Shown piece by piece: positions 13,653-39,103 of a stretch of 54,072 nt of DNA. The stretch is taken from the NCBI GenBank assembly GCA_018401295.1, contig JAGYLJ010000004.1:1-54072 (forward strand). Direction: 5' to 3'. The translations under genes were made by a program, and so were the position numbers. This DNA comes from a bacterium (GTDB lineage Bacteria; Patescibacteriota; Minisyncoccia; Phycocordibacterales; UBA12079). Positions within the stretch are counted from its first letter, which is position 1. The number at the start of each line of letters is the position of its first letter. The notes under the pieces are model-generated. The model searched no databases. It was given only the letters and a program-made list of their open reading frames with translations, and was not told the origin of the DNA.

Positions 13653-13681
13653 TTAACTTTCAATTTAATGTTGTTTAGAAT
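13653..13681 (+). promoter_or_regulatory. sigma70-type promoter now driving only a 14-codon stub (likely native ychF promoter)
   Basis: TTAACT (13653-13658), 17-nt spacer, TAGAAT (13676-13681). ATG at 13695. Confidence 0.5.
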
Positions 13682-13694
13682 ATACTAATTCATT

Positions 13695-13739
13695 ATGTTA
13701 TCAATCGGCATGGCTGGAACGCAAGACAACATAATTTGA
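13695..13739 (+). pseudogene. ychF: orphaned 5' stub of ychF (MLSIG...) left at the element junction
   Basis: ATG TTA TCA ATC GGC AT.. encodes MLSIG(M), versus ..VLSIGIVGLPNVGKST of the ychF ORF at 39036. Joining 13695-13711 to 39065 onward gives MLSIGIVGLPNVGKST. Confidence 0.55.
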
Positions 13740-13866
13740 GGTTTATAAAAATACCCTTTGAATTTAAGATTAAATTACCTGCACCTAAAAAGAGATTTGG
13801 GAATAAGTGAGTTTGTTTGTGTTGTTTGTAGAATCTTTAATACTTTAGTGTTATTATTTTTGTATT

Positions 13867-14715
13867 ATGAATAATATTCCCACAATAACCGTAATTAAAG
13901 ATTTGGAAAAAGAAGCGGATGTTTTCGTTAGTTTTTTGAATCATCCACATTTTCCTCAACATCGTCTAAACATTTTTAAGATCTATCCAAAACTGGAGGA
14001 ACAAATTGCTGAGAGCCAAGATGAGAAAATGGCAGTGGTTGAATTTATCAAGTCTTTTTATCAAAAACATCAAGATAAATTAAACATAATTGTAGATGAA
14101 AGTGAGAAGTCATTAGATGAATCGGGTGAGGCATTGAAGCAGTTAGGTGAATTGATGGAATATCAATGGGCGGAAAATACAAATTATAAAGCGTATCCTA
14201 CAATTCTGCCTTTTTCTCCTTTCAATGGAGATGAGTTTTTCTTTTCTATATTGAATTCTTTGTTCAAAAATGAGCCTGTCGATGTTTTGTATGTAGCAAT
14301 TCACGAGATATCTCACTTTATCTTTTTTGATCAAATGGCGGTGATTGAGAATAAAAATAATGTTAAATTTAATGATGACATAGTCTATTATTTCAAGGAA
14401 TCTTTGACGGCAATGATTCTTAATCAAGCCCCCCTTAAAGTGCTTTTGGGTAAAAAAGATATCTTGGGAAATCCAAATATTCGTGATATTCGAGTAAAGA
14501 CAGGGGAGGAGGAAATAAGTTTGGTTGAATTTTTAAGGAAAGAATTTGAAGCTAAAGAAAATTTTGTTGATTTTTTGGAAAAAACTTTGCTGTTATTAAG
14601 AAAATCGGAAGCGGAATTTAATAATAAAAGGGACTTTTGGAATAAAAACGGTCCAAAAATTTTTGAATCTAAAGAAATGTTAGATGAGTATCGAGCACCT
14701 ATTTTAATAAAATAG
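13867..14715 (+). CDS. hypothetical HExxH protein (putative zinc metallopeptidase)
   Basis: single VAIHEISHFIFF HExxH motif, no other recognisable domain. Convergent with the RiPP cassette. Confidence 0.4.
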   Translation: MNNIPTITVIKDLEKEADVFVSFLNHPHFPQHRLNIFKIYPKLEEQIAESQDEKMAVVEFIKSFYQKHQDKLNIIVDESEKSLDESGEALKQLGELMEYQWAENTNYKAYPTILPFSPFNGDEFFFSILNSLFKNEPVDVLYVAIHEISHFIFFDQMAVIENKNNVKFNDDIVYYFKESLTAMILNQAPLKVLLGKKDILGNPNIRDIRVKTGEEEISLVEFLRKEFEAKENFVDFLEKTLLLLRKSEAEFNNKRDFWNKNGPKIFESKEMLDEYRAPILIK

Positions 14716-14739
14716 CCCCCTTACATAAGTAAGAGGGCT
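14714..14739 (-). terminator. terminator of the RiPP cassette (shared convergent hairpin)
   Basis: AGCCCCCTTAC-ATAA-GTAAGAGGGCT. The one non-Watson-Crick position is G.U on the minus-strand RNA but C.A on the plus strand. U-rich tail on the minus strand. Confidence 0.6.
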
Positions 14740-14762
14740 GGTTTGATGTGACCGCTTTGGTT

Positions 14763-14897
14763 TTAAGAGCTGTCACATTCTTCGCAGTTGAAGTCGCAAT
14801 CGTAACAGCCACCCAAAGAATCAGCATGTCTTGATTCCTGAGAGTCATCAGCACTGAATGCTGACATGTCCAATATGCTTTCAAATCCTGCTGGCAT
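14763..14897 (-). CDS. 44-aa RiPP precursor peptide: MPAGFESILDMSAFSADDSQESRHADSLGG-CYDCDFNCEECDSS
   Basis: GGAAGGAGG SD 8 nt before the ATG, 20 nt after the rSAM stop, terminator after it. Double-glycine junction followed by a 14-aa core with 4 Cys and 6 Asp/Glu/Asn. Too short for the ORF track, which lists a wrong-frame 61-aa ORF here. Confidence 0.75.
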   Translation of the reverse strand: MPAGFESILDMSAFSADDSQESRHADSLGGCYDCDFNCEECDSS

Positions 14898-14917
14898 TAT
14901 AATCACCTCCTTCCGTT

Positions 14918-16240
14918 TTAGTTTGTAGATGGCATCATAACCTTTTTATGAACCAAACCTTCTGCAAAGCCCTCTCCGATGATGTTACATTTTTCAATGA
15001 ACACTTCTCGAGTTAGATCTTTGTATTCGGCTAATTCAGTAAAAAGTTTGATGCCATCGTTGTTTAGGTAACACGCAAGGCGCGTACCTAAGAACATAGC
15101 TGCACCGAATGATTCGGGACGCCAACGTATCTTGGGGTTAACTTTAACTTTTGGTGGAATTTCAATTTCTTCCACCTTTCTTTTTTTAAGGAGGTTGTAC
15201 ACCGTATCGGAGTTTTCTGGTAATGAGTATGGATCTAATTCAGAAAGTGACCCAGATCGCATTTTTGCCTCCATACGACATCCACCACCACACCAGGGTA
15301 ATACTTTACATGCTTTGCATATACTTGGAATAAGAGAACCGTCTCTCCATTCAGTCATCCTGTCCCAGATTTCATCCAGATTTTCAGCAAGCATATTTCC
15401 ATAATCCTTATCAAGATGTGTGCAAGGGCGGACATCCCCAGTTGCTGAGATAGCCACTGTGTTTATACCAGCCATACATCGGCGTTTTGACAAATTTTTG
15501 TACTCATCTATTTCCTTTACTCCACAAAACGGGTAACTGCTTAGGGCATCCGTATTCAAACCTTCTTCAAGACCATAAGATCTTAAATCTTTGAGATATT
15601 GACGAAATTCCGTCACATCCAATGAATACTTATTGAAATCTTTACAGTTACCTGGGCAACCAGCTCTGGTACAGTTGAAACTTTTTAGTCCCAACTCTTT
15701 AGCAAGATGCATAGTTTCTAATATATACATCTTGTTCTTTTTGGTTACAACCATGTTTATGGCCACAGGAACATTGAACTTTTGCAACAAATTGATTCCT
15801 TCTACAGTTTGTTGAAAGGCACCGTGTTTCTCAACCAACTGGTCGTGAATTCCTGGGTTAGGGCCTAGAATAGAAGTCATAACGATGGACACTTCTAATT
15901 TTTTAAGCTTGGCACAGTCCCTGTCATTCAAAGTAGTCAAAGTTGAATTAATAGATGTTGTTATTCCGTTTTCTTTTGCTTTCTCGATTGCTCGGAAGAG
16001 AACATTCTTATTGAGAAGAGGCTCTCCTCCAGTTAAGATGATATGGAATATACGATACTCGATTAATTGATCCATGATTGCTTCAATTTGGTTGATTGAC
16101 ATATTTGGTGAACCTTCCAACGAGCATCCCTTGTTGTCTCCTTTGTTTCTCCAAAAATTATAGCAATGCTGACAATTATTGGGGCATAAGGATGATAGTT
16201 CAATCTGAACTACTTGTGGCGCACTTAATTTTTTGTACAT
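14918..16240 (-). CDS. radical SAM / SPASM-domain peptide maturase with C-terminal PqqD-like (RRE-type) extension
   Basis: CPNNCQHC (Cx3Cx2C) at residues 19-26. SPASM cysteines CMAGINTVAISATGDVRPC and CKACKVLPWCGGGC. Tail RWRPESFGAAMFLGTRLACYLNNDGIKLFTEL resembles PqqD-family peptide-binding domains. Confidence 0.85.
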   Translation of the reverse strand: MYKKLSAPQVVQIELSSLCPNNCQHCYNFWRNKGDNKGCSLEGSPNMSINQIEAIMDQLIEYRIFHIILTGGEPLLNKNVLFRAIEKAKENGITTSINSTLTTLNDRDCAKLKKLEVSIVMTSILGPNPGIHDQLVEKHGAFQQTVEGINLLQKFNVPVAINMVVTKKNKMYILETMHLAKELGLKSFNCTRAGCPGNCKDFNKYSLDVTEFRQYLKDLRSYGLEEGLNTDALSSYPFCGVKEIDEYKNLSKRRCMAGINTVAISATGDVRPCTHLDKDYGNMLAENLDEIWDRMTEWRDGSLIPSICKACKVLPWCGGGCRMEAKMRSGSLSELDPYSLPENSDTVYNLLKKRKVEEIEIPPKVKVNPKIRWRPESFGAAMFLGTRLACYLNNDGIKLFTELAEYKDLTREVFIEKCNIIGEGFAEGLVHKKVMMPSTN

Positions 16241-16282
16241 GTTTATTCCTCCTTTTTATTTAAAGGTACATATCTACAAATC

Positions 16283-16310
16283 ATCATACAATAAGTTTGG
16301 AATTAGTCAA
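16283..16310 (-). promoter_or_regulatory. sigma70-type promoter of the rSAM-precursor cassette
   Basis: minus strand TTGACT, 16 nt, TATGAT. AAAGGAGGA SD before ATG 16240. Confidence 0.5.
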
Positions 16311-16386
16311 TGTTTGTGTGACAGCCTAAATTTAATAAATAACTTGCCCTTTTTCTTTTTATGAGGTTTTGATAGAATCTTTATAT

Positions 16387-16548
16387 ATGATATTTATTAA
16401 AGAAGCACGAGAAATACTTGGCAAGGATTATGAAAACTGCTCTGATGAAGAAATAGAGAAAGTAATAGATGGAGCTTATATGTTCGCTGATATTTTTTTG
16501 GAAGGAGTAATAGACAAAGAAGAAAGATCATCTAATGATTTAACTTAA
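16387..16548 (+). CDS. 53-aa acidic hypothetical protein (not in ORF track)
   Basis: open frame MIFIKEAREILGKDYENCSDEEIEKVIDG..., no SD. Confidence 0.3.
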   Translation: MIFIKEAREILGKDYENCSDEEIEKVIDGAYMFADIFLEGVIDKEERSSNDLT

Positions 16549-16595
16549 TTAAGTATATCAAGACCTATTTTTGTGGTATATTTAATTTAAATATC

Positions 16596-17234
16596 ATGGC
16601 GACAACAACTGATTTAATTTTATTGCAATATTTAGAGATTTTAGAGAAGACTAATCAGCAGTTAGGTCTTTGGACTAATCCTTATGGGGTTATGGTAACG
16701 GTCTTATCTTTTATAATTGCTGTTTTGGCTGTGGTGTTTGCTTTTTATTTATGGAAACAAAGTAAGGATTACCAAGAAAAATTTGATAGTTTTTTGAAAA
16801 AACTACAAAACAATTTTGATGTTGAAATTAAGAAAAATTTAAAACTTAGATCTAAGCAAAATAAACAGTTAGAAAAAATTATGTCTGAAAAGAAGAAAGA
16901 AATGGAAGATTTAACAGGAGAAGCTAAAAATAAGGTAGAAAAGGAAGTTAAAGAAATTCAAGAAATAAAAAAAACTCTAAACAGACAGTCTATAGTCCCT
17001 CTTTCTTCGGTAGGTGAATACGGAGATCGTTTTTATGGGGAAGATATAAATATTCGTTCTTCGTGTGGTTTGGAACCAATAATTGGCTCTTCTTTAAATA
17101 CTTCATGTGTTAAAAAATGTGAAAAATGTGGGAATATTTATTTGGATCCTAGTACCAACTGTGGACCTGGTATTGCTCTTGTTTCTTTAGAAACAAAAGA
17201 ATCAAAATGTCCTTATTGTGGCAATCTAAATTAA
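16596..17234 (+). CDS. membrane-anchored coiled-coil protein with C-terminal Cys4 zinc ribbon
   Basis: one TM (VMVTVLSFIIAVLAVVFAFYLW), K/E-rich coiled coil, CVKKCEKC...CPYC. Confidence 0.55.
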   Translation: MATTTDLILLQYLEILEKTNQQLGLWTNPYGVMVTVLSFIIAVLAVVFAFYLWKQSKDYQEKFDSFLKKLQNNFDVEIKKNLKLRSKQNKQLEKIMSEKKKEMEDLTGEAKNKVEKEVKEIQEIKKTLNRQSIVPLSSVGEYGDRFYGEDINIRSSCGLEPIIGSSLNTSCVKKCEKCGNIYLDPSTNCGPGIALVSLETKESKCPYCGNLN

Positions 17235-17241
17235 ATAATTA

Positions 17242-17424
17242 ATGATAGAACTAAGTAAAAAAGCAAAGGATGATTTGAAAAAAGTTTTGATTAAAGATGC
17301 TGGTTTAGATGTAGTTAATAAGCTTACAGATGAACAAATGAATAGGTTTGGTGTACTTTGTTTGACTGCTGTTAGAGAGGGCATAAAAATAGATGCTCAA
17401 GGAGAGGATTCAGAAGGAATTTAG
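17242..17424 (+). CDS. 60-aa hypothetical protein
   Basis: ORF tightly follows 16596-17234, no motif. Confidence 0.4.
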   Translation: MIELSKKAKDDLKKVLIKDAGLDVVNKLTDEQMNRFGVLCLTAVREGIKIDAQGEDSEGI

Positions 17425-17461
17425 TTTTTCATGGTTTTTGGAGTAAAATTAAAATAATAAA

Positions 17462-18058
17462 ATGCACAAGCGAAAGATAATAAAAAAGTTAACAGGGAAA
17501 GAGCAATTCAAGAATAGCGGGAATAAAAGTTTCTCTGTGGTTGATTTTTGGCAGTACGGATTCTCAAATTTAAATTCTAATATTCTTAGAGGAGTATTAG
17601 CAGAATTTTTGGTTGAAAACGCTTTGAAAGATAAAAGAGATATTAATATTAGAAATCCTTGGGATGATTATGATGTATTATCACCTCAAGGGAAGAAAAT
17701 AGAAGTGAAATGTTCTTCTTATCTCCAAGATTGGGATCAAGATAAATTATCGAAAATAGTTTGGTCTGGTTTAAAAGCTCGAGAACTATATTGCTCCTCT
17801 ATTGTAGAAGAATCTCCAAAAAACGATAAAGATTATAAAGCTGACATTTATATTTTTGCTCTCTTAAAAAACAAAGACACGGAAACTTTAGATATCCTCG
17901 ATATGGATCAGTGGGGATTCTTTGTTTTATCTAAAGACGAAGTTAAAAAGATTACTAAAAATGGAAGTAGTTTATCTTTAAAGACTTTGGAAAAAACAGA
18001 TATTAGAGAAGTTCATTTTAATGATTTGGTTGAGAGTATCAATAAGCTTTTAATTTAA
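17462..18058 (+). CDS. PD-(D/E)xK-fold nuclease-like protein
   Basis: WDDYDVLSPQGKKIEVKCSS fits D-x(n)-E-x-K. DIYIFALL strand follows. Confidence 0.5.
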   Translation: MHKRKIIKKLTGKEQFKNSGNKSFSVVDFWQYGFSNLNSNILRGVLAEFLVENALKDKRDINIRNPWDDYDVLSPQGKKIEVKCSSYLQDWDQDKLSKIVWSGLKARELYCSSIVEESPKNDKDYKADIYIFALLKNKDTETLDILDMDQWGFFVLSKDEVKKITKNGSSLSLKTLEKTDIREVHFNDLVESINKLLI

Positions 18059-18197
18059 TTGAAGATAAAAAATAAGTCTATATACTCCCGTGACTATTCA
18101 TGTTTGGTAAGTTTATCTCTTGTGAGGTAAAGGCAACTAATTCAATAGTCGTGGGAGTATGTAGGTTTATATAAGTGTAATATTTAATTATAAACAA

Positions 18198-18953
18198 ATG
18201 CTAAGTAAAGAATTAATTCAAAACAGAATAAATAATTTTTGGGGATATGGCAGTTTAGAATCTCCTGTCTGGCTTGTTGGTATGGATGAACGTTTTGATC
18301 CATCAGAAAGTCAAGAAATGCTTGAGGATCAATTCCTTTATGCAGAAGCCAATATGGTTGATGGAATGTTAAATGCCAGTCGTTCTAAAATTGACGAGTG
18401 GAGACATCTTGCTAATATGGAGCCGTTTCTTGTGAACGGTGATTTACAATCAACATGGAAATATCCAATCGCCTTGTATTTGTATCTCCATTCTGGCATA
18501 CCACTTACAATAGACGAGCGAAGTAATGTAATAAAAGAATATCAAAGAAATATACTTGCGGATGCAAACAAAAGGGAAACAGCGACATTAGAATTATCGC
18601 CACTTCCTTGTCCAAGCACAAAAGAAGAAGATTGGATTTATGGAAGTTTAGATATTGAGGGGATTTCTTCTCGTAAGGAATATGAAAAGAATTATTTGCA
18701 GGGCAGAGCAGAAAAATTAAAAGGATTGGTACAAAGACATAAACCAAAACTTGTTATTTTTTATTCAATGAAATACTTGAATTATTGGGAAAAGATTATC
18801 GGAGAAATGCCACAAATAGTTACTGTCCGAACACGGTTTGCATCAAATAAAGATACAGCTTTTTGTGTTATTCCAAATGGTGGTCAATCAGGTCTATCTT
18901 ACAATGAATTGTATGAATATGCTGATAGAGTTAAAGATAGAATCAATTTATAA
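18198..18953 (+). CDS. hypothetical protein
   Basis: 251-aa ORF. SPVWLVGMDERF faintly resembles UDG-fold motif A, but this is not supported further. Confidence 0.5.
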   Translation: MLSKELIQNRINNFWGYGSLESPVWLVGMDERFDPSESQEMLEDQFLYAEANMVDGMLNASRSKIDEWRHLANMEPFLVNGDLQSTWKYPIALYLYLHSGIPLTIDERSNVIKEYQRNILADANKRETATLELSPLPCPSTKEEDWIYGSLDIEGISSRKEYEKNYLQGRAEKLKGLVQRHKPKLVIFYSMKYLNYWEKIIGEMPQIVTVRTRFASNKDTAFCVIPNGGQSGLSYNELYEYADRVKDRINL

Positions 18954-18993
18954 AACTCTATTAAAACTGTTTTAGAACATGATAACGGCGTTT

Positions 18994-19251
18994 TTATTTT
19001 GAAGATTGTTTAGTAAATAATTTATATAGATATTCTCCGAAAACTATTATTCGATATTTAATGATTAAAATAATACGATAACTTTGTAGTATTTTCGTAA
19101 TTACATAATTTTGAATAATTCCGTGTATCAGGATAATACGTTTAGTGAATGTATCTTGTATACCTAATCTCCTATAGGCATCAGCCGGCATAATTTGTTT
19201 TTGTAATCTTTCGATTAAGGTTTGTTTTTTCATGTTAATTTTTATAGTCAT
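18994..19251 (-). CDS. hypothetical 85-aa ORF
   Basis: track ORF downstream of 19235-19417, very AT-rich and may be spurious. Confidence 0.2.
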   Translation of the reverse strand: MTIKINMKKQTLIERLQKQIMPADAYRRLGIQDTFTKRIILIHGIIQNYVITKILQSYRIILIIKYRIIVFGEYLYKLFTKQSSK

Positions 19252-19417
19252 CTCCCATAATTCGTGAAAATGTTTCTGTTGGGGACTCGAAACTCTTTTT
19301 TGTTAACATTTCTTCTTTTATTTCATCTATTTTAGTAGAGTTATTTTTACATATTCTATAAATTCTCCATAAAGCAAAAACGATAAAAACTAGAATTATT
19401 ATTAAAAATGTCTCCAT
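19235..19417 (-). CDS. 60-aa single-TM protein
   Basis: METFLIIILVFIVFALWRIY TM helix, directly downstream of 19473-20726. Confidence 0.4.
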   Translation of the reverse strand: METFLIIILVFIVFALWRIYRICKNNSTKIDEIKEEMLTKKSFESPTETFSRIMGDDYKN

Positions 19418-19472
19418 AATTTTTTAATTTAAATTAAAAATAAAAATAAGTATCTTTATATTTGAGATTTTT

Positions 19473-20726
19473 TTATGGTTTTGTAATTTGAAAAGCCATT
19501 AGTGTCAGATAAATTTCTTTGTTGGGGTCTGATGGGTGCTCAAACTTGTAGCTAAAGATTGTATCTGACCCTTCCAGTTCTGCATTAGTCAAAGAATATT
19601 CTGATTTGAAGTTTGTATGAGTATTCAAAGTTTCTCTAGCCTTCTCTAAAATAGCCGATAGGTCATTTTGTTTGTTAAATAGAACAATTGAGGTTTTGGT
19701 ATCTCTCCAAGTCACGTATCCGAATAATTGCTTTATTGTTTCCTCCAAATTCCTTTTTCCCTTCCAAAATTTACATTCAGCAATAAAGGCGTTCGCATTC
19801 TGGTGACGAATAAGTATGTCTGTTTTACCTATACCATTGAATGTCTCACCTGTAGCTGTTCCTTTATAATGCCCATTGAGGAGTATCAAAAAGAAATCTC
19901 TTATTTCCTCCTCTGTCAGTTTAGAGAATGTGGCGGGACTACGTTCCATTGCGACTGCCATATCTTTCATAATAGTGAGAATATTTTCGTATTCTGAAAC
20001 ATCAAGTGTCGGTTCAGGTGTATATTTTTTTACCTTTGGAGGTAGTACTATTTTTGGTTTTCTTTGAATTTCTGGAATGCAATATGTTTCTGGTACGTTA
20101 TCATGCTTCTTGATAGGTATTTTTAAAGACTGTATAAGGGTCTGGCTTTTTGAAGCAGTGTTCCGTCTCTCATTCAATTTTTCCTTTATAATGCCTGGTA
20201 TTTGAGCATTGAGCCTACCTATGTCAGCATTCAACCTCTCCGCATTTGTTGAAATCATACTTACATCTTGGTTGTAGTGACCTTCCAAATTTGCGTTGTC
20301 TCCAGCTTCAACTCTGTATGGTAGATGTATTTCATTTCCATTTACAAAGCCATCCATTTTGCGACTCATATTCATTGCACGAGAGGTTGGCTGGATTTCA
20401 AACAATGAGGGGTCTCCTTCAAAAGGGACGTGCACTGTGAAGTTAATATAATTTCGGTTTATGTTGATGTATTCATTTTGCCATATTCGGTCTTGTACTC
20501 GCTCTCTTACACTTTCTTCGCGTGGATATTCTGGCAAGTAAACTTCATTGGATTTTATAACAATTGGCTGTACAAGAAATCGCTCCTCAAAATATTTTAC
20601 TAACTCTTCAACAGGGGTATTCAATACATCATCTGCATTGTATCCGTGAATAGCAGATATAAGAGAATTCTTTTTCCCTTGTTCAAAGTCATGAAAAGAT
20701 TGTCCAAAAAATAGTTCTCCCCTCAT
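19473..20726 (-). CDS. 417-aa protein with C-terminal PD-(D/E)xK (restriction-endonuclease-like) domain
   Basis: GKTDILIRHQNANAFIAECKFWKGK = D-x13-E-x-K. The N-terminal ~250 aa has no recognisable motif. Confidence 0.5.
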   Translation of the reverse strand: MRGELFFGQSFHDFEQGKKNSLISAIHGYNADDVLNTPVEELVKYFEERFLVQPIVIKSNEVYLPEYPREESVRERVQDRIWQNEYININRNYINFTVHVPFEGDPSLFEIQPTSRAMNMSRKMDGFVNGNEIHLPYRVEAGDNANLEGHYNQDVSMISTNAERLNADIGRLNAQIPGIIKEKLNERRNTASKSQTLIQSLKIPIKKHDNVPETYCIPEIQRKPKIVLPPKVKKYTPEPTLDVSEYENILTIMKDMAVAMERSPATFSKLTEEEIRDFFLILLNGHYKGTATGETFNGIGKTDILIRHQNANAFIAECKFWKGKRNLEETIKQLFGYVTWRDTKTSIVLFNKQNDLSAILEKARETLNTHTNFKSEYSLTNAELEGSDTIFSYKFEHPSDPNKEIYLTLMAFQITKP

Positions 20727-21020
20727 ATTTGTTTGAAGTTACCTTGTAAAAATTTTTTCATAAATTATTTTAATTAATTATTACTTACTGTAAAAGTATA
20801 ACTCGTAAAACTAATATAAATATTATATTATAATCTTATAACTTTTACGAGGGATTTATTATTAAAAAATAACGATAAAATGAAAGTAGAAAAAGATTTT
20901 TACACAATTCGAGATTTGGTTAAAAGTATTAATAAATTTGTATTGTGAGACAAGGGTTTTTGAGGTAAAATAGGGGGTAATTGATTTTAATAGTTTAATT
21001 CTATATTTCTCTTAAATAAT

Positions 21021-21878: not shown

Positions 21879-21950
21879 CTATGAACGATAATGTGTTTAT
21901 TTAGCTAATTGAGGAAGACAAGAAACAAAATTTTTAAATAAAATAAAATT

Positions 21951-28942: not shown

Positions 28943-29027
28943 TTATGAAAATAGCCAAAAATAAAAGTATCATAAAAAAAGCCCCTCAAAATGAATTGAA
29001 GGACTTTTTTAGATTATTTAATAATGT

Positions 29028-29609: not shown

Positions 29610-29615
29610 ATTTTT

Positions 29616-29798: not shown

Positions 29799-29803
29799 CT
29801 TAA

Positions 29804-30580: not shown

Positions 30581-30581
30581 C

Positions 30582-30601
30582 TACTAGATTAATACTAGTA
30601 G
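30582..30601. repeat. two TACTAG(A/T)(T/A) boxes upstream of gene 30629
   Basis: TACTAGATTAATACTAGTAG, same box as the 36433-36492 array. Confidence 0.6.
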
Positions 30602-30628
30602 TTTTATTTTTATGAATAAATTATTTTA

Positions 30629-31525: not shown

Positions 31526-31529
31526 AATT

Positions 31530-32078
31530 ATGGGATTATTATATAATATGGCACTAAAAGGATTACTTAATCCTTTGATAAAAGAAAAAACTAAACTTAC
31601 TTATGAACAGCAAGAAAATATTAGTGAATATTGGATTTTTGTTGTGCCTTTTTTGAGACTATTTTTTCAAGGAATAATGAACGATGACAAATCTAAAGTT
31701 TTTTTAAAAGCATTAGCACAGTGTGATAAAAATATATTTAGAGAGATAGTTAATCTGTTTGTAATTTGGTTTTTTTATAATTTAGATAGAATAGTTTTAA
31801 GGGGGGTCAATGATTTATTTGATGAACAAAAATTAAGAACTTATCTTGTTAAAATTTGGTTTGTTGATTATGTTAATCTTCGCGAGATTACAGACTTACT
31901 TGATAATACAAAACTTGAAGAGAGACAACAAGTTTTTTGTAAATTAATTTTTGAAAAATTAAATAATCATGAATTGTTAGGTACTCTTATGGTGGTTTTT
32001 GTTTCTGCTCACATGTTTGGTAATTTAAAAATAGTATTGTCTTTAGATGAAGATAAGTTAACAAAAATTAGTTTTTAA
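31530..32078 (+). CDS. hypothetical protein
   Basis: start moved to ATG 31530 (MGLLYNMALKG), just after the upstream stop at 31525. Confidence 0.5.
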   Translation: MGLLYNMALKGLLNPLIKEKTKLTYEQQENISEYWIFVVPFLRLFFQGIMNDDKSKVFLKALAQCDKNIFREIVNLFVIWFFYNLDRIVLRGVNDLFDEQKLRTYLVKIWFVDYVNLREITDLLDNTKLEERQQVFCKLIFEKLNNHELLGTLMVVFVSAHMFGNLKIVLSLDEDKLTKISF

Positions 32079-32122
32079 TATAAAGCAATATTAAATTTAA
32101 AAACAATAATTAAGTAAAAAAA

Positions 32123-32332
32123 ATGACCACAAAAAAGTTCAAAATAATAACCATCTTAAGCAACTTAGCAGTTATAGTAGTTTTTGCATGGCTACTTATC
32201 ACAGATCCTTTTGAATCTACTTCAGGTGTTCTTCTCATCTTCATTGTTCTATCAATGTCTAATCTATACTTAATTTTGAAAGACGATGATTTTAAAGAAA
32301 GTAGGTTGTGTTTTTGGCGAAAAAGGAAATAA
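32123..32332 (+). CDS. 69-aa two-TM protein
   Basis: two hydrophobic helices. Confidence 0.45.
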   Translation: MTTKKFKIITILSNLAVIVVFAWLLITDPFESTSGVLLIFIVLSMSNLYLILKDDDFKESRLCFWRKRK

Positions 32333-32352
32333 AAAGGTAAGATATAAACATA

Positions 32353-33195
32353 ATGAAATTTAAACTATTTGACAGAGCAATGGATATAAAAATTATAAAA
32401 ATAATTATCGTTATCATTGTTTTAGTAGGTTGTTCTATTATCATTAAAGATGAAATTGTATGGCAATTTGGAAGTGATGATTATTACGATGATTCTTCCT
32501 ATTCCTCAGGCTATTCAGATTATCAAGATTGTAATGTAGCCAAGATAGATATTAAGAGCTTCATAGATGTAGAGAATTATGACGGAGAAAGCGTTTCTTC
32601 TAGCGAAGTAGTTTCTGCTATAGAGGATGCTAATTATTCTGAAAACATTCAAGGTCTTATCTTAGACATCGATAGTTATGGAGGTTTGCCTGTCTCAGCA
32701 GAAGAAATAGCTGATGCTTTAGTTCGTGCTGATATTCCAACAGTTGCTTTAATTAGAGGAACAGGTACTTCAGCTGCTTATTGGGCCTCTACTGGAGCAG
32801 ATGTCATCTTCGCTTCAGCTTTATCTGATGTAGGAAGCATTGGAGTTACTATTTCATATCTTGATAACGTAGCCCAAAATCAAATGGAAGGGCTTCATTT
32901 CAATCAATTAAGCACAGGCCAATACAAAGATATGTTAAGTTCAGATAAAACCCTCACTTATAACGAAAGACTTTTAGTTGAAAGGGATTTAGATATTACT
33001 TTAGATAATTTCATTCAAGCAGTTGCAGATAACAGAAACTTAGATATTGATAAGGTCAGATCTTTAGCAGACGGCTCAAGTTTTATGGGCCAAATGGCTC
33101 TTGATAATGGTTTAATAGATTATATTGGTAGTTTGTATGATGTTAAAGAATATCTCTCAAATTTAATAGGTGAAGAAGTGGTTATTTGTGAATAA
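32353..33195 (+). CDS. S49-family serine peptidase (SppA-like / prophage protease-like)
   Basis: N-terminal TM. RGTGTSAAYWASTGADVIFA (nucleophile Ser context), VGSIGV, GQYKDMLSS (general-base Lys context). Confidence 0.75.
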   Translation: MKFKLFDRAMDIKIIKIIIVIIVLVGCSIIIKDEIVWQFGSDDYYDDSSYSSGYSDYQDCNVAKIDIKSFIDVENYDGESVSSSEVVSAIEDANYSENIQGLILDIDSYGGLPVSAEEIADALVRADIPTVALIRGTGTSAAYWASTGADVIFASALSDVGSIGVTISYLDNVAQNQMEGLHFNQLSTGQYKDMLSSDKTLTYNERLLVERDLDITLDNFIQAVADNRNLDIDKVRSLADGSSFMGQMALDNGLIDYIGSLYDVKEYLSNLIGEEVVICE

Positions 33196-33402
33196 AACCT
33201 TTATTTTAGAACATAAATTGTAGGTTGTTTAACATTATAATGCATTATGTAGGAAGACATCTTTTGTTGCTAGATTTTTCTTGATTAACAATGTAGGGCA
33301 TTATGTGAGAAGGGTTTTTTTCGGATTTATCCGAAGGTGTGTTTGAACGTGTCTGGGGTTTTTGTATTGACCTCCTTAAATATTTTGTTATAGAATAAGT
33401 GT

Positions 33403-34119
33403 ATGGATGCATATACTAAAAGAGTACAAAATCAATTAAAGTGGTTTGTTGAAAAGATTTTGTCTTTAGAACCTATTATTTTTGAAATGTACGAAGAAGT
33501 TATTTTCTTTCCTTTTGATTTAGTGAAAGAACGTTCTGACCTATTTCCTTTAGGTAGATATGCTTCAGCAACTGATTTTCTAAATGAAGAAGACGAATAC
33601 GCTAGTTATTGTATAGAAATGTTAACACAGATTAAAAAAGATGTTTCTTTTTTAAATAAAGACTTGAAAGTTTTAGAATGGGATGAGGATGATGGTCGCT
33701 ATAGTTTGGGGAATATTTTTCTTATAGATAGTAAATTTAGACCAGTTTTTCAAGAATATCTTGAGTTTATGGAAAATAAAATAAGATCTACAAAAATTAT
33801 TAGTTTAAAAAATAAGAATATAGAATTTGATGATGTTGTCTCCTCTATTTTCATTGATGGGGTTGAATGTCCTTTGCCCCCGGCTAAAAATGAAGATTGT
33901 TTAGCTAAAGCTATGTTCAAAAGGGAAATTAATGAAACTGTTGACTGGTCTATCATTTATAAAGAAATGACAGGAAGTGAAGATGTTGTAGGAGAAGAAA
34001 AAAACCATAGAACTGTTAAAGATACTGTACGAAGAATAAACCAACGAGTAAAAAATAGATTTAAAACAAATGATGATTTAATTACTTGTGAGCTTAAGAT
34101 GGTAAGAAGAAATTTTTAA
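33403..34119 (+). CDS. hypothetical protein, possibly DNA-binding C-terminus
   Basis: 238-aa ORF behind TTGACC-17-TATAGA. Basic C-terminal TVKDTVRRINQRVKNRF segment. Confidence 0.5.
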   Translation: MDAYTKRVQNQLKWFVEKILSLEPIIFEMYEEVIFFPFDLVKERSDLFPLGRYASATDFLNEEDEYASYCIEMLTQIKKDVSFLNKDLKVLEWDEDDGRYSLGNIFLIDSKFRPVFQEYLEFMENKIRSTKIISLKNKNIEFDDVVSSIFIDGVECPLPPAKNEDCLAKAMFKREINETVDWSIIYKEMTGSEDVVGEEKNHRTVKDTVRRINQRVKNRFKTNDDLITCELKMVRRNF

Positions 34120-34142
34120 ATTGTTTTTATATAAAATCCTTA

Positions 34143-34178
34143 AGAGAGTGAGTCGCCAGTGACTCACTCTCTTTTTTA
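34143..34178 (+). terminator. Rho-independent terminator
   Basis: AGAGAGTGAGTC-GCCAGT-GACTCACTCTCT followed by TTTTTT. Confidence 0.75.
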
Positions 34179-34290
34179 TTAGGATAGCTTAAGAAGAATC
34201 TTAAGCTGATTTTTTTATAAAAATAGCAAACGAGATTTTTCTCTAACAAAGGTCGAAAAATATTATTAACAAATAATTAATTTAAAAAAA

Positions 34291-34548
34291 ATGAAAACAA
34301 TTAAAAACAACGACGAGTCAAAGAAAACTATAATTTTACCAGGCTTAAAAAATGATATTGAGGACATTAAGAAAAAAAGTTCTATTTCGGAGGATCTTAT
34401 TATTCTCCATTTTTATTCAGTTGAGAGTTCTCTCATATCAGGAGAGTTAACCTTAGACGACACTTTTATAAGTGGAATCGGTGACTTGCACGCTATCAAA
34501 CAGTATCTATCAGAAATAGCTGGTGAAGAAGTTGTGCTTTTTTGGTAG
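34291..34548 (+). CDS. 85-aa ORF whose C-terminus duplicates the S49 peptidase C-terminus
   Basis: LDDTFISGIGDLHAIKQYLSEIAGEEVVLFW versus LDNGLIDYIGSLYDVKEYLSNLIGEEVVICE of 32353-33195. Confidence 0.45.
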   Translation: MKTIKNNDESKKTIILPGLKNDIEDIKKKSSISEDLIILHFYSVESSLISGELTLDDTFISGIGDLHAIKQYLSEIAGEEVVLFW

Positions 34549-34580
34549 GTATCTCTTATTAGAAATTTAAGTAAAAAAAT

Positions 34581-34772
34581 ATGAAAACACTAAAAGTAAA
34601 AAAAATTTATAAAAAATATTCTCTGAAAGACACTTCTTTGTTCGGTAAAGAATTGAAAAAAGGAGATACGATGTTCGAAGTTATAAAGTATTTTGAAAAA
34701 CACAATCAAAGAAGAAATAAAGCTACTGACGACATCTTAAGGGCAATAGCAACAAAAATGGGAGCATTATAA
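34581..34772 (+). CDS. 63-aa basic hypothetical protein
   Basis: track ORF, no motif. Confidence 0.35.
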   Translation: MKTLKVKKIYKKYSLKDTSLFGKELKKGDTMFEVIKYFEKHNQRRNKATDDILRAIATKMGAL

Positions 34773-34842
34773 TTAAAAAAATCAGTGATTCTGTAAAAAA
34801 CAATGAGAAGAAGAAAGGATCACTAAAACTAATTCAAAAAAA

Positions 34843-35091
34843 ATGAAATCAATTAAAGCTCGTTACGAGCAGGTTAGGAGAAAACTTTCAGAATCTTACT
34901 CAACTTATATTTGTTTTTCTAGGACGATAGAAGGACAAAAATTTAGTTATGAATCTATAAGTAAAAACTTTAGTTTTTTGGTCGACAAAGATGATTACGC
35001 TAAAAATGAAAGAAACCAGATTTTAAGACACTTGCATTGTCTTTCAAATACCCTTGAGGAGCACGAGTTAGGGCAAAAAAATCGTTTATAA
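34843..35091 (+). CDS. 82-aa hypothetical protein
   Basis: track ORF, no motif. Confidence 0.35.
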   Translation: MKSIKARYEQVRRKLSESYSTYICFSRTIEGQKFSYESISKNFSFLVDKDDYAKNERNQILRHLHCLSNTLEEHELGQKNRL

Positions 35092-35246
35092 GAGCCTAAA
35101 ACACTGAAGGTCATAGATTGTGTTATGTCACTAGAAAGCACCATTAAAAATAGAAAAAATGCTGTAAAAACTGGTTTTGACATAAACCACTTGAATAAGG
35201 TTTTGATTTGAACAGATTATTAGAACTAAATTAAAAATAATTTATT

Positions 35247-35514
35247 ATGGAAGAAAAAATAAAAACACCGGAGGAGTATTTAAAACTCTTTCCTAATACG
35301 CGGCTTCGTTACCTTCATGATGTTAATAAAACAGTCATACAAGGTAAGTGACAAACTTGACATGTCGTGGAATGAAAAAGGATATGGGGTTTTCTTTACT
35401 GTTAATGGATTTCCACCTACAGGTAAAACAGACCAAGCCCATCTTTTATCTTTGAACGGTAATTATGTTGATTTTGATACAGATGATGCTTTGGAGATTT
35501 TAGAATGTTTGTAG
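35247..35514 (+). pseudogene. frameshifted, truncated primase-polymerase (AEP/prim-pol) gene remnant
   Basis: MEEKIKTPEEYLKLFP... (35247-35351), then a +1 frame gives KGYGVFFTVNGF...KTDQAHLLSLNGNYVDFD (the GxxFTxNxF ... hhhhDxD motif I region). Stop after ~65 aa. Confidence 0.5.
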
Positions 35515-36432
35515 AGTTATTTTATAAACAAAAAAGGGACTGTGTTATAATGGAAAAGTTAGTTAATTTGACTAACCAGGATGAAGAGTTATGTGAGCAT
35601 CTAGAAAACCTTTTCAAGATGTTCTCATAACTCGGGAACATCCTGAAAGGGTTTTTTATTTAAATAGTAACTTGCTTTCAAAAAAGTTTAAAACATTTAA
35701 ATTTACCCATTGAAAATTGAAAAATGTTTGAACCTCTGGACTCTTATCTAAAAGCCTTCGGGCCCAGTTCAAACTACATACAAAGAACCCTTTGCTGGAA
35801 GGTTGAGGTAATTCTTTAACAATTAGCGGTAATAAGAGAGTCCGTAGTGGCAAAGATACGGCAAGATTCGGACTTAAATCTTTAGACAATATAGCGAAGC
35901 ATTAAACAGGATCTTCTAATGTAATTTTTCTCAAACTATATTGAATGGGTTACAAATTGTAACCAAGTCACCAAGATTGATGTTTTTACATCACATCCTT
36001 CGTCGCCGAGAAAACTTAGACAGCGAAAAGGAAGAGGAACTATGATCCTCCTCAATAAAACACTGGAAATTTACTAGTCAATAGGTTGTACTAACAAAAT
36101 TGACCAAAAACACTGCTAATTGGACAAACCCGAAAAAAGGGAGTCATTTTTAAATTGTTTTATTTAAACCAATTTAATTTAGACCAATTTATCTTTTTTA
36201 GATGATTTGGTCTAAAAAAAGAATGGCCCTCCGGGCTTGTCCGTTCAAAGACTACTTAGAACTTAACAAGTAGCAAGTAAATGATTGATACAATGTTATA
36301 TTTTTGTAGTTTCTTGTTCGCAACTATCAAATGTATGTTTATTGTTAGTTGTTAATTTGAAATAATAAATAAGTTTTATATTAATGCATTATACATAATG
36401 TTTGGGCATATCTATTGGTTTATGGTCATTTA

Positions 36433-36492
36433 TACTAGTATAAATACTAGTATTGATACTAGTATAAATAGTAGTATCAATACTACTAAGAA
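36433..36492. repeat. five 12-bp-periodic boxes with palindromic core TACTAGTA (iteron/operator array)
   Basis: TACTAGTAT at 36433, 36445 and 36457, TAGTAGTAT at 36469, TACTACTAA at 36481. Exact 12-bp spacing. Confidence 0.85.
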
Positions 36493-36724
36493 TAAAGAAT
36501 GAAGGAAGGTAGAATTCTCAAATGCCATAGCCAAATTCCAGCAATAGAGATTATTAAATAATTTAAAAAGGCAGTTGTTCTAATTTCAGAATGACTGCCT
36601 TTTTTTATGGATAGAGGTATTTTTTTATTTAAATAGTTATCCCACAGACGAAAATTGGGACTGGCGTATACTGTAGTAAACAATATGATATGAAATTCCT
36701 TATTATTAATTTAAGAAAACGAAC

Positions 36725-36934
36725 ATGTCAGAAAATAAAAAGACTGTGGTTTCGTTTAAGGATAAAGATAAAGTTAAAGATGAGCATAAGTTTAGAGATA
36801 CGGTTATGTTAAGAGTTAGTCGTAGTTTAAGGGATGAATTAAAAAAAGAATCGGAAAGAACTTTTATAACTATGTCGCAATTAGGAGACTGGGCATTAAA
36901 AGATTATCTTGATTCAGTTAAATCTTTAGATTAG
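36725..36934 (+). CDS. ribbon-helix-helix (CopG/Arc-like) DNA-binding protein
   Basis: VMLRVSRSLRDELKKESERTFITMSQLGDWALKDYL = beta-strand plus two helices, the RHH pattern. Confidence 0.55.
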   Translation: MSENKKTVVSFKDKDKVKDEHKFRDTVMLRVSRSLRDELKKESERTFITMSQLGDWALKDYLDSVKSLD

Positions 36935-37098
36935 TAGGTTGTGGAGTTTTGTAAACAAAATTTCTCTACAAAGCTTCATTTAAGAAGGATTTTTCTTAAA
37001 TGATATCTTGTCTACCTTTGATCTATTTCGGGCATAAAAACCTGATTTTGGCTCTCCGGGAGGGATAAGATACTTTTTTAGGAAAAATAAAAACAGAA

Positions 37099-37187
37099 TT
37101 ATATGAAGCGAGCATATAATTTCATCATTCGGATTATATAAAAACATATTATTACTTAATCGTTTTTATAAATCCTCACTCGAAATT
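37099..37187 (+). repeat. ~90-bp conserved upstream region, copy A (copy B at 48335-48424)
   Basis: TTATATGAAGCGAGCATATAATT...TTCGGATTATATAAAAACAT..TTATTACTTAATCGTTTTTATAAATCCTCACTCGAAATT-ATG. Roughly 85-90 percent identical by eye to copy B. Confidence 0.85.
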
Positions 37188-37403
37188 ATGAACAAAATTA
37201 ATGAAAAAGAAGAAAATCCGACTCTTTCCATCAATGTATTTGATACTTTGAAGATACAGGCCAAAATGACTTTTGATACTTGTTTTGTTGATGGCATTCA
37301 GTTTACTTATTGGATGGAAGACGAAGACCAAATTAAAGAACGCATAGACGGTATTTTTGATATTCTTTTTGATGAGATAATTAGAGGTGAAAATAGTAAT
37401 TAA
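37188..37403 (+). CDS. 71-aa acidic hypothetical protein upstream of the recombinase
   Basis: track ORF, possible recombination directionality factor by position only. Confidence 0.4.
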   Translation: MNKINEKEENPTLSINVFDTLKIQAKMTFDTCFVDGIQFTYWMEDEDQIKERIDGIFDILFDEIIRGENSN

Positions 37404-37432
37404 TCAGATAACGGGGTAAAATAAAAATAAAT

Positions 37433-39103
37433 ATGGAAACTAAAATTGAAAGAGAAATAAAGTTTATTGCTACTTATTCGAGGGTGTCTACTTCTGCACA
37501 GGAAGTGCAAGAAACAATTCAAAATCAGATTAACTCTTTAAAAGAATATGCTAAGAAAAATAATTGGGAAATAATTCATGAGTATAAAGATGAGGGTTGG
37601 AGTGGGGATGTTCTTAAACGTCCCGGATTAGATCAATTAAGAATCGATGCTAAAAGAAAAGTTTGGGATGCTGTTCTCATTTATGACCCTGACAGATTAG
37701 CGCGAAGATATTCTTATCAAGAGTTAGTGATGGATGAATTAAAAGAAGCGGGAGTGCAAGTGCTTTTTGTTACTGTCGGAACTCCTCAAAATAGTGAGGA
37801 TAAAATTCTTTATGGAGTGAGGGGGCTGTTTGCTGAATATGAAAGAACTAAGATTGCGGAGAGGTTTAGATTAGGGAAGGTCAGTCGAGTAAAGAACGGA
37901 CATATTTTAACCACAGAGGCTCCTTATGGTTATACCTATATTCTCAATCAAGGAAAAAAAGGAGATGCTAATTATATACCAGGCCATCTAGAGATTAATG
38001 AAGATGAAGCTAAGGTAGTGAGAGAAATATTTTCTTGGGTAGCAGATAAAGGGCTGACTGTTCGAGGTGTGGTGAAAAAATTGCAGAAATTAGGCATTCA
38101 GCCAAGAAAAAGTAAGCGAGGAGTGTGGAGCACCAGCTCTCTCAGCACAATGTTACGAAGAGAAACATATATCGGGACGGCTTATTGGAGGAGATCAGAG
38201 GCAATAATACCTGCACATCCTTTAAAGGATGAGAAGTATAAGAAAGTGAAAAAAACTAGTAGACGCTTGAGATCTAAAGAAGAATGGGTCCCGATAACAG
38301 GTATTCCCAAAATTATTGATGAGGATTTATTTAACAGAGCGGGGGAAAGATTAAAAAGTAATTTTGCTACTTTAGGGAGGAATCGGAAATATGAGTATTT
38401 GCTCTCAGGGAAAGTGCGTTGTGGTTGTGGTTGTACAAGAACCGGGAGCGCTACCCAAAAAGGTAAGCATTTGTATTATTGCTGTTCTAATAGGGTCCAT
38501 TCTTTTCCTTTACCTCCCACTTGTTCAGATAGGGCTGTCAATGCCAAAATAACAGATAGAGAATTATGGCACAGGGCTAAATTATTATTGACTTCACCAG
38601 ATTTAATCTTGCGACAAGTTGAGATATGGAATGCAAAATGTAAAAATATTAAATCCGGTGCTGGGTTGCTTGATATAAAGGACCTTCAGAACAAGATAGA
38701 TAAATTAAAAGCAGAAGAAGGTCGAATTGTGGATTTGTATTCTAAAGAAATGATTTCGTTAGAAATGTTTAAAGAAAAGGTTAAGCCAATTAGAGAGAAA
38801 ATTAAAGGGTATGAGGGACAAATCATTAAAGCTAAATTAGAGAAAAATTCTAAAGAAGATTTGTCGGTGGTGGTTAGTGAGAAAGATATTAAAACTTTTA
38901 CGGAGGGGATAAAATCTAAGTTAAACAACTTGAGTTTTACTGCAAAACAAGATATTGTTAGACGTATTACTAATGAAGTAACTATTAGTCACAATTCATT
39001 ACAGGCTTATGGTTGCTTTAATCTAAAAGAAATTTATGACGCGTTGTGTTCTAAGTATAGGAATTGTGGGGCTACCCAACGTTGGGAAATCGACCTTGTT
39101 TAA
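37433..39103 (+). CDS. large serine recombinase (integrase)
   Basis: resolvase catalytic domain ATYSRVSTSAQ...DAVLIYDPDRLAR, recombinase domain, Cys-rich zinc-ribbon CGCGCTRTG...YYCCSN, C-terminal coiled coil. The last ~22 codons overlap ychF out of frame. Confidence 0.9.
   Translation: METKIEREIKFIATYSRVSTSAQEVQETIQNQINSLKEYAKKNNWEIIHEYKDEGWSGDVLKRPGLDQLRIDAKRKVWDAVLIYDPDRLARRYSYQELVMDELKEAGVQVLFVTVGTPQNSEDKILYGVRGLFAEYERTKIAERFRLGKVSRVKNGHILTTEAPYGYTYILNQGKKGDANYIPGHLEINEDEAKVVREIFSWVADKGLTVRGVVKKLQKLGIQPRKSKRGVWSTSSLSTMLRRETYIGTAYWRRSEAIIPAHPLKDEKYKKVKKTSRRLRSKEEWVPITGIPKIIDEDLFNRAGERLKSNFATLGRNRKYEYLLSGKVRCGCGCTRTGSATQKGKHLYYCCSNRVHSFPLPPTCSDRAVNAKITDRELWHRAKLLLTSPDLILRQVEIWNAKCKNIKSGAGLLDIKDLQNKIDKLKAEEGRIVDLYSKEMISLEMFKEKVKPIREKIKGYEGQIIKAKLEKNSKEDLSVVVSEKDIKTFTEGIKSKLNNLSFTAKQDIVRRITNEVTISHNSLQAYGCFNLKEIYDALCSKYRNCGATQRWEIDLV

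Follow-up and report, generated by a model that had tools for sequence, protein, structure and literature searches.

Introduction

The large serine recombinase (LSR) elements PhiC31, Bxb1, A118/LI, and TP901-1 share a three-domain enzyme (resolvase, recombinase, and zinc ribbon with coiled coil), short attachment (att) sites of imperfect dyad symmetry with a non-palindromic 2-bp crossover and no long direct repeats, and a recombinase gene located at the edge of the element by attP. In this study, we analyzed a 54,072-nt stretch (the window) of contig JAGYLJ010000004.1, from the chromosome of a bacterium of the candidate phyla radiation (CPR; Patescibacteria), in which a plasmid-like integrative element of 25 kb very probably lies inserted in ychF, a universal gene encoding a GTPase. 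The element resembles the above systems in these respects, but differs in that its attP lies within the open reading frame (ORF) of the recombinase, so that the C-terminus of the enzyme is set by the integration state.

Pipolins of Actinomycetota that encode an LSR use ychF as the integration site, as inferred from gene context, and the report does not describe replacement of the start codon or a split recombinase gene (PMC11551731). The window element is likewise an LSR-driven, defence-rich island at ychF, a likeness of gene context; unlike the pipolins, it has no recognised piPolB, the sole pipolin hallmark (no PolB-like Pfam match was obtained in the scanned ORFs of the window), and it resides in another host phylum. 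In the pneumococcus, a prophage between dnaN and ychF alters the promoter context and expression of ychF (PMC6375853). There, too, an integrase gene lies immediately upstream of ychF, which is a likeness of layout, whereas the 14-bp direct repeats are in the promoter region and the ychF coding sequence is untouched.

Skin (SpoIVCA) and SPbeta (SprA) of Bacillus are LSR insertions in protein-coding genes that inactivate their targets until developmentally programmed excision, and phage 21 and e14 at icd are islands that regenerate the target gene. With the former, the window element shares an LSR insertion inside a protein-coding gene, but here the ORF is restored on integration. Integration driven by an LSR is well known, as are islands that restore their target gene and keep it functional, among them those at tRNA and tmRNA genes (PMC4383910). 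As in such islands, the window element carries a replacement gene end and a displaced fragment marks its far end; here, however, the 5' end of the gene (the start codon and, in effect, the promoter) is replaced, and the replacement comprises only eight codons and is not a host duplicate.

The integrases IntP/IntX of myxophage Mx8 and those of the fusellovirus SSV have attP within the integrase coding sequence, which acquires a new 3' end on integration (PMC6070905, PMC4383910); in Mx8, this new 3' end is reported to modify the integrase activity. The layout with attP inside the integrase ORF is shared, although the window family is not a member of this group: those enzymes are tyrosine recombinases acting at tRNA genes, whereas a serine recombinase and a protein-coding gene cut and repaired at its 5' end are involved here. 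In a limited search of open-access full text, we found no report of a serine integrase with attP inside its ORF, or of this family in the CPR.

Insertion of the element in ychF

The insertion and its host genes comprise the following features.

13217..13579, plus strand: KhpA/B-type KH-domain gene of the host, adjoining the insertion on its left side (Pfam PF13083, 3.9e-21)
13601-13643, plus strand: strong terminator-like hairpin of the KH gene (consensus scan)
13653-13681, plus strand: orphaned native ychF promoter-like site, TTAACT-17-TAGAAT (consensus scan)
13695..13739, plus strand: orphaned native ychF start, ATG TTA TCA ATC GG (MLSI/G, the slash marking the junction), then element DNA to the stop (sequence)
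13709..39059, no strand: body of the integrated element (absent from the syntenic relative L006; bounded by attL and attR)
37433..39103, plus strand: LSR, integrated isoform of 556 aa (Pfam PF00239, PF07508, PF13408)
39036..40166, plus strand: ychF in its present state (Pfam MMR_HSR1 and YchF-GTPase_C)

The body of the element amounts to 25,351 bp, or 25,353 bp with one GG counted. Its mean GC content is slightly below that of the flanks with overlapping profiles, and was set aside as evidence. The stub ORF from ATG 13695 to TGA 13739 has 14 codons and encodes MLSIGMAGTQDNII, and the present ychF ORF, which overlaps the recombinase ORF by 68 nt in a different frame, begins with MTRCVLSIGIVGLPNVGKST. 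The stub joined to the present ychF gives MLSIGIVGLPNVGKST, the usual start of close ychF homologues; native relatives begin with MLSIG, and nearly all of the 120 best homologues open with M(x0-2)LSIGIVGLPNVGKST. The window ychF itself is 81-86% identical to its relatives over the full length. The site at 13653-13681, which now faces the element, probably served as the native ychF promoter.

An empty site was found in relatives. The 52.5-kb contig L006, which carries a ychF protein (P0004) 81% identical to that of the window, has the gene order PAP2, GIY-YIG, sugar transferase, KH, ychF, 183-aa ORF, leucyl-tRNA synthetase (LeuRS), sigma factor, and DUF8128, which is that of the window genes from 10622 to 45062 minus 25 kb. 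Its KH-ychF gap of about 125 bp contains a terminator and an A/T-rich leader, a layout equivalent to 13601-13681 of the window. The same arrangement, with KH directly followed by ychF, was observed in two further samples (L007 and L008), and the window KH protein is 85% identical to that encoded directly before ychF in these three loci. In L005, a more distant relative, KH also precedes ychF, but three other genes separate the two. Among ychF homologues, an unoccupied site is the common condition.

These results confirm, at the stated coordinates, the features given in an earlier annotation made from the letters of the window alone (hereafter the sequence-only reading) and support its interpretation; that reading had described an element of about 25.3 kb splitting the 5' end of ychF, an orphaned promoter and native start at 13653-13739, a 556-aa large serine recombinase ending in the 5' end of ychF with a 68-nt overlap, and a replacement N-terminus that keeps ychF intact (again encoding LSIG, with different codons). 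The empty site that it proposed to look for in related genomes exists in L006-L008 with the same neighbours on both sides. The block is not present everywhere and the stub is the native ychF start; the identical flanking synteny of the empty site excludes both outcomes named there as fatal, a 25-kb block conserved among relatives and a stub that is a small ORF of its own. Its splice at 13711/39065 paired the right junctions but not at the exact point, since the crossover GG lies three bases to the left, and its comparison with skin and SPbeta is correct in the class of enzyme and no further, as the target gene is not inactivated. Two results go beyond that reading: the recombinase ORF crosses attP and is re-tailed by integration, and the element is one member of a large ychF-specific family.

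As a separate observation, the closest ychF relative (L001, 85%) has an RVT_1 reverse transcriptase and a bAvd gene directly 3' of ychF (L001 1533-2939), which looks like a diversity-generating retroelement.

Attachment sites and crossover

13687..13734, plus strand: attL, consisting of the host B arm (to 13706), crossover GG (13707-13708), and element P' arm (13709-13734, CATGGCTGGAACGCAAGACAACATAA) (P'-arm matrix and dyad)
39034..39087, plus strand: attR, consisting of the element P arm (39034-39059, TTATGACGCGTTGTGTTCTAAGTATA), crossover GG (39060-39061), and host B' arm (P-arm matrix)

The host side of attL reads ...ATGTTATCAATC before GG and is followed by the P' arm, and the host side of attR after GG reads AATTGTGGGGCTACCC... 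Position weight matrices were constructed from the P' arms of 18 other genomes and the P arms of 52 other genomes, with the window left out. The top match in all 54 kb was 13707 for the P'-arm matrix (23.7 bits; the runner-up, with 10.8 bits, was attR on the opposite strand) and 39060 for the P-arm matrix (19.9 bits; runner-up 6.3). The arms of the reconstructed attP showed 16/26 inverted-repeat matches centred on GG, in a range of 11-20/26 over 19 elements. Furthermore, among 2,503 GG sites in the window, only 13707 gave at least 15/26 dyad matches to the attR arm (mean 7.0, sd 2.2). These attL and attR signals are far beyond chance. In two other elements of the family (L022 and L038), GG is the sole base identity of attL and attR. 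On the basis of the dyad centre and of this sole identity, the crossover is assigned to the non-palindromic GG at 13707-8 / 39060-1, the dyad centre of a predicted attP of about 54 bp. Short dyad-symmetric att sites, a 2-bp crossover, and no long direct repeats are the characters of a serine integrase system.

In the mechanism that we propose, the element recombined into codon 5 of ychF by its own LSR. The promoter of native ychF remained at attL, 25.35 kb upstream, together with the start codon and the first four codons. With its P arm, attP brought an ATG exactly 24 nt before GG and codons ending in LSI, by which ychF was rebuilt: codons 1-8 of the present gene (39036-39059, MTRCVLSI) are supplied by the element and the rest by the host, giving an N-terminus four residues longer. 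The LSR in turn lost its conserved C-terminal tail, the codons of which are stranded at 13706-13810, and ends in 14 out-of-frame ychF residues. Excision would undo all three changes. We hold this explanation as a whole with high confidence; the empty site, the four att sites (attL, attR, attP, and attB), the family-wide specificity for ychF, the tail swap, and a circular relative are each documented at the level of sequence. The rebuilt ychF ORF is of full length with an intact P-loop strand, and no loss of the target as in skin and SPbeta was found. The restored gene is probably expressed and functional.

The recombinase and its C-terminal tail

The window recombinase matched the Pfam families Resolvase (PF00239, 1.8e-31, residues 13-157), Recombinase (PF07508, 6.3e-20), and Zn_ribbon_recom (PF13408, 7.8e-08). 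Y15, R17, V18, and S19 are invariant in alignments of 23 and 42 homologues, both including the window protein, which keeps all family-invariant residues, among them the RVS19 nucleophile motif. An AlphaFold2 model of the homologue P0240 shows long helices at 364-468 (zinc ribbon with embedded coiled coil), and its top Foldseek matches were full-length LSR-DNA complexes (9y66, 9dxh, Bxb1, PhiC31, and 4kis; E ~4e-21). These findings identify a bona fide large serine recombinase, which is predicted to catalyse attP x attB recombination.

For its last 14 codons and its stop (39062-39103), this enzyme uses the ychF DNA of the host, in a frame other than that of ychF. The corresponding element-encoded end was found at the opposite junction.

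13706..13810, plus strand: orphaned recombinase 3' end, in the recombinase frame RHGWNARQHNLRFIKIPFEFKIKLPAPKKRFGNK and a stop (frame open at all attL sites)

In 19/19 delimited elements, the DNA rightward of attL has no stop for 29-53 codons in the recombinase frame (codon xGG), and the other two frames close fast. The tail has the conserved motif R[HY]GxNTTRH...K[LF]IPFxFxIK[LI]PxP with the core IPFxFxIKLPxP. Over 25 elements, the mean pairwise identities of the 14-codon core were 0.70, 0.78, and 0.36 at codon positions 1, 2, and 3, respectively, and this third-position wobble is a protein-coding signature; those of the adjacent P' arm were 0.61, 0.82, and 0.79, as expected of a DNA-binding site. 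Indeed, seven database recombinases contain the tail within one continuous ORF, and the P arm, GG, P' arm, and tail are contiguous at three loci (L029, L032, and L054) and on three contigs (L097, L098, and L100). L097 (8,445 nt) has a 16-nt terminal overlap, an HTH_17 ORF running across its ends, and an intact attP; on account of the overlap and of this ORF, we take it as a closed circle of about 8.43 kb. It carries plasmid-type genes (HTH_36 and a DnaC/IstB-like ATPase). L098, L099, and L100 showed no terminal overlap when tested for circularity. Among the 120 closest database recombinases, 89 end in the peptide expected from out-of-frame ychF, and the 24 left unclassified mostly show a shorter form of that peptide; the host-encoded C-terminus has a median of 14 codons, with the junction codon counted.

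Taken together, these findings indicate that attP lies in the LSR reading frame, that integration exchanges a tail of 29-53 residues for out-of-frame ychF sequence, and that all four site types (attB, attP, attL, and attR) are represented in the family. The 26-bp arm would be triple-coding, serving as the recombinase binding site, the recombinase's C-terminal region, and the start of an unrelated host GTPase. In the AlphaFold model of the full-length form P0240 (mean predicted local distance difference test score, pLDDT, 77.8), the segment encoded by the att core (525-547) is predicted to be disordered and LIPFEFIIKL (550-559) to form a beta strand (pLDDT ~86). The stranded tail ORF is intact at 19/19 attL sites, which suggests that the elements pass through an episomal state frequently enough for selection to maintain the tail.

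The tail swap may alter the activity, stability, or directionality of the recombinase. We tentatively consider, while leaning somewhat to the opposite view, that the family constitutes an integration-state switch, in which a full-length episomal LSR with the beta-strand tail and a tail-less integrated LSR, which ends in whatever residues the host sequence encodes, are isoforms with different directionality, stability, or choice of site. The tail might, for instance, be required for attP x attB recombination or might block attL x attR recombination, so that the element would carry a record of its own state.

The family in the CPR

When one genome per species was scanned with the window recombinase, 71 loci with homologues of 42-65% identity were obtained. 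In 52 of them, ychF immediately follows and overlaps the 3' end of the recombinase gene, and the ychF proteins of these fused loci are just 43-65% identical to that of the window. According to the record names, the hosts are Saccharibacteria, Paceibacterota, and Nomura-, Yanofsky-, Kaiser-, Doudna-, Levy-, Jorgensen-, Moranii-, and Gracilibacteria. The arm on the element side follows the conserved consensus aaattATGTCgngTtcaaaaCtnnCnATC/GG; an ATG lies exactly 24 nt 5' of GG in 47/53 attR sites, and the frame is open in 52/53.

Scanning for dyad symmetry and then with a position weight matrix located attL in 18 other loci, where a host ychF start (MSFQI/G, MLSI/G, MKLSI/G, and others) is joined through GG to a P' arm with the conserved sequence [CT]ATGGnGnGAACACAACCnGACAT. 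A stub of the same kind as in the window is present at each of these 18 sites, and the elements so delimited (4.4-11.5 kb) each have both the native stub and an element-supplied N-terminus. The closest recombinase homologue (80%, L080) is likewise joined to ychF, and that ychF belongs to the lineage of the empty sites L002-L005.

Besides the recombinase gene, a gene encoding an HTH_17 excisionase-like protein of 59-64 aa (PF12728, 5.9e-14; phrog_66) overlaps the start of the recombinase gene in 11/19 elements. DUF5659 and a 388-aa protein are also recurrent, and several elements have a primase-polymerase (prim-pol)/helicase or a D5-type primase; the cargo is otherwise unrelated from element to element. 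The relative L098 shows a weak TrwB-like match. We read these elements as small integrating plasmids, forming a large and apparently undescribed family.

In about 12/19 elements, the first gene is co-oriented with the native ychF promoter, often about 160 nt from attL. The idea that this promoter drives the first element gene was dropped; the stranded tail ORF explains part of the spacing.

Several further observations were made on the family. Between occupied and empty ychF of one lineage (L080 2062-2202 and L002 2037-2177), 6/36 nt differ right after GG and 2/105 in the next part; the excess falls in the host arm read through by the recombinase. In metagenome-assembled genomes of Saccharibacteria, the cargo of the 7-kb elements (L022 4723-6547, L038, and L070) includes genes for a phosphotransferase of APH type (PF01636) and for an rRNA adenine dimethylase (PF00398, 1.8e-53), a pair that could confer aminoglycoside/macrolide resistance. 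L024 has a second attL-like site 1 kb inside the element (sites at 2393 and 3427; ychF-type start, GG, and P'-like arm, 24.5 bits), which may be a remnant of an earlier tandem insertion.

In non-CPR bins (L029, L039, L050, L054, L032, L046, and L073), the recombinase gene is followed by an intact attP-like site and not by ychF; these homologues are on Bacteroidota, Limisphaerales, Omnitrophota, and alphaproteobacterial contigs, which look chromosomal and reach 2.25 Mb. One of them, the isolate genome of Bradyrhizobium manausense BR 3351 (L046), has complete attP-like sites at 1284 and 11571, which are directly oriented and separated by 10.3 kb; a single recombinase gene lies at the right end, and there is a frameshift in the recombinase-proximal tail ORF. 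This double site may represent a tandem array or integration into the attP of another copy.

Genes carried by the window element

14918..16240, minus strand: radical SAM/SPASM enzyme (Pfam PF04055, 5.9e-22; PF13186, 7.8e-07)
19473..20726, minus strand: candidate defence gene PDC-S54 (PADLOC PDLC05036, 3e-128, full length)
21951..26945, plus strand: type I-like restriction-modification module (methyltransferase 21951-23981, specificity subunit 25605-26945, two ORFs between)
29616..29798, minus strand: SymE-like toxin-fold ORF (Pfam PF08845, 2.7e-09)
32353..33195, plus strand: S49 (SppA/ClpP-type) peptidase (Pfam PF01343, 9.9e-31; phrog_53, 5.4e-37)
35265..35493, plus strand: frameshifted prim-pol/helicase remnant corresponding to residues 17-92 of 642 (59% and 75% identity to the L036 prim-pol in two frames by tblastn, with no match past these residues)
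36432..36485, no strand: 12-bp repeat ATACTAGTATAA, 4.5 copies (Tandem Repeats Finder score 80)
36725-36934, plus strand: Arc/ribbon-helix-helix (RHH)-like ORF upstream of the recombinase gene (phrog_3180, 4.9e-05)
37188-37403, plus strand: 71-aa ORF upstream of the recombinase gene (homologues at the same position in L015, L014, and L009)

The restriction-modification module matched MTase_I (3.8e-258) and Specificity_I (1.2e-31) of PADLOC and N6_Mtase and HSDR_N_2 of Pfam, and a homologous methyltransferase/specificity pair is carried by the element L021. No R subunit was recognised with PADLOC or Pfam. The sequence-only reading's cassette for a ribosomally synthesised and post-translationally modified peptide (RiPP) is represented by the radical SAM/SPASM enzyme, and no precursor peptide was identified. 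Its SymE-like, S49 peptidase, prim-pol remnant, and RHH labels all agree with the matches listed above. Besides the genes listed, the element has many ORFs without an assignment. Pfam analysis of the window, with the small ORFs scanned in part, gave no relaxase or type IV secretion/coupling gene and only a sub-threshold ArdC-N match.

The 12-bp repeat is iteron-like and sits in a 1.2-kb non-coding stretch (35520-36720) adjoining the prim-pol remnant; it is possibly an origin or a regulator-binding site. A search of the non-coding parts of 35500-37200 against Rfam with a relaxed threshold gave nothing credible. The RHH-like and 71-aa ORFs are candidates for a regulator and a directionality factor. 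When the HTH_17 gene, the D5-type primase, and the 388-aa core protein were searched for in the window by tblastn, none was found, and the prim-pol fragment was the only match. The window copy appears to be a large, defence-laden, and partly decayed member of the family.

A LOOT RNA motif was also detected inside the element (30440-30557, plus strand; full-length match to RF03000, 77 bits against a gathering threshold of 46), just upstream of the ORF at 30629-31525.

Alternative explanations

Some of our results weigh against the integrative-element explanation. In a promoter scan for the rebuilt ychF, matches were no commoner than in shuffled sequences, and the original gene caller starts this protein (P0001) at GTG 39066. 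Exact searches of JGI metagenome contigs gave 0 matches each for the attB 24-mer and the attP 26-mer, and neither the empty site nor the circle junction of the window strain was found there; the exact window KH protein has no other record. Moreover, the comparison data are nearly all from metagenome assemblies. The window element itself is the largest member found, 2-6x the other delimited elements, and lacks the usual HTH_17 excisionase-like gene; of the prim-pol/helicase replication gene that related elements carry in intact form, it retains 76 frameshifted codons.

As to the first of these points, no terminator was found between the recombinase gene and ychF; because of this, and because no convincing promoter precedes the new start, transcription of ychF by read-through from the recombinase gene is the simplest and most likely model. 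As to the start codon, GTG 39066 would drop the first beta strand, and the longer product from ATG 39036 is favoured by the family-wide ATG at -24 and the kept L-[ST]-I codons.

The points concerning the window copy itself bear more directly on a second explanation, that the element integrated as described and is now a fixed, immobile, decaying defence island kept for its cargo, with the recombinase and att sites as relics. The truncated prim-pol, the missing HTH_17 gene (present in 11/19 delimited elements), the size of 25 kb as compared with 4.4-11.5 kb, and the failure to find a circle or an empty site of the window strain in the JGI contigs all agree with this, as does an 85-aa ORF (34291-34548) in which the 40 C-terminal residues of the S49 peptidase recur (43% identity over 40 aa) and which points to an internal duplication or rearrangement in the element. 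However, the recombinase ORF is unbroken and keeps all family-invariant residues, the matrices rank both att sites first, the stranded tail ORF is still open with its motif intact, and a conserved 71-aa ORF occupies the place where other elements keep a small upstream gene. We therefore regard immobility as possible but not as the expected state; the window copy may still be able to excise.

Less likely, and in our opinion improbable, is a reversible switch of ychF for the benefit of the host ("active lysogeny"), in which integration and excision would toggle between expression from its own promoter and expression driven by the element. Integration does part ychF from its promoter and native start with no terminator between the recombinase gene and ychF, and the Streptococcus pneumoniae prophage just upstream of ychF lowers its expression, which is raised by excision (PMC6375853). 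On the other hand, ychF is rebuilt and not inactivated, empty sites are common among its homologues, and the variable selfish-element cargo and the replication genes fit a parasite that spares its target.

A prophage is highly improbable. Temperate phages commonly carry serine integrases, and for the S49 peptidase there is a match to a phage "head maturation protease" family (phrog_53, 5.4e-37); nevertheless, none of the 20 ORFs compared with PHROGs (18 of the window and 2 of related loci) matched a capsid, portal, terminase, or tail family, Pfam analysis of 27 element ORFs gave no virion structural or packaging genes, and the related elements are of 4-11 kb with plasmid-type replication genes. 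The best match to the recombinase among 50,697 phage records had 31.5% identity, and that in phage and plasmid collections was about 32% (Wolbachia phage WO and Skermanella plasmids), with no close annotated relative. IMG/VR, scanned with the recombinase and with the family alignment, contained only recombinases of 24-33% identity and none above, on which ground the prophage reading was dropped.

That no insertion occurred, the 25-kb block being ancestral and lost in relatives such as L006 or the stub being an independent small gene, can practically be dismissed. In its favour is only the presence of the block in some genomes and not in others. Against it, a perfect MLSIGIVG start would not arise anew by deletion, the ends of the block form a dyad-symmetric attP that is intact in circular relatives, 18 other genomes have this architecture around unrelated cargo, and the stub codons are those of the native ychF start.

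Implications

Mobile elements of the CPR (Patescibacteria) are poorly known, and the present family may be one of their main integrative element families; it is now defined by four att site types, a consensus target in a universal gene, and sizes of 4 to 25 kb. By placing a start codon and a few codons in the recombinase-binding arm, the 5' end of a conserved protein gene would be usable as safely as the 3' ends of tRNA genes. The reciprocal cut of the recombinase gene leads to a testable hypothesis of state-dependent control of a serine integrase, a class widely used in genome engineering, and recombinases with a natural attB in ychF could serve as integration tools for CPR bacteria.

Region downstream of ychF

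Rfam analysis of 40150-40750 with a relaxed threshold gave nothing credible. Within this region, about 400 bp right after ychF (40200-40600 of the window) are open in several frames on both strands and contain no Pfam-annotated gene, and the syntenic spot in L006 likewise has only short unannotated ORFs. The stretch may contain an unrecognised RNA gene.

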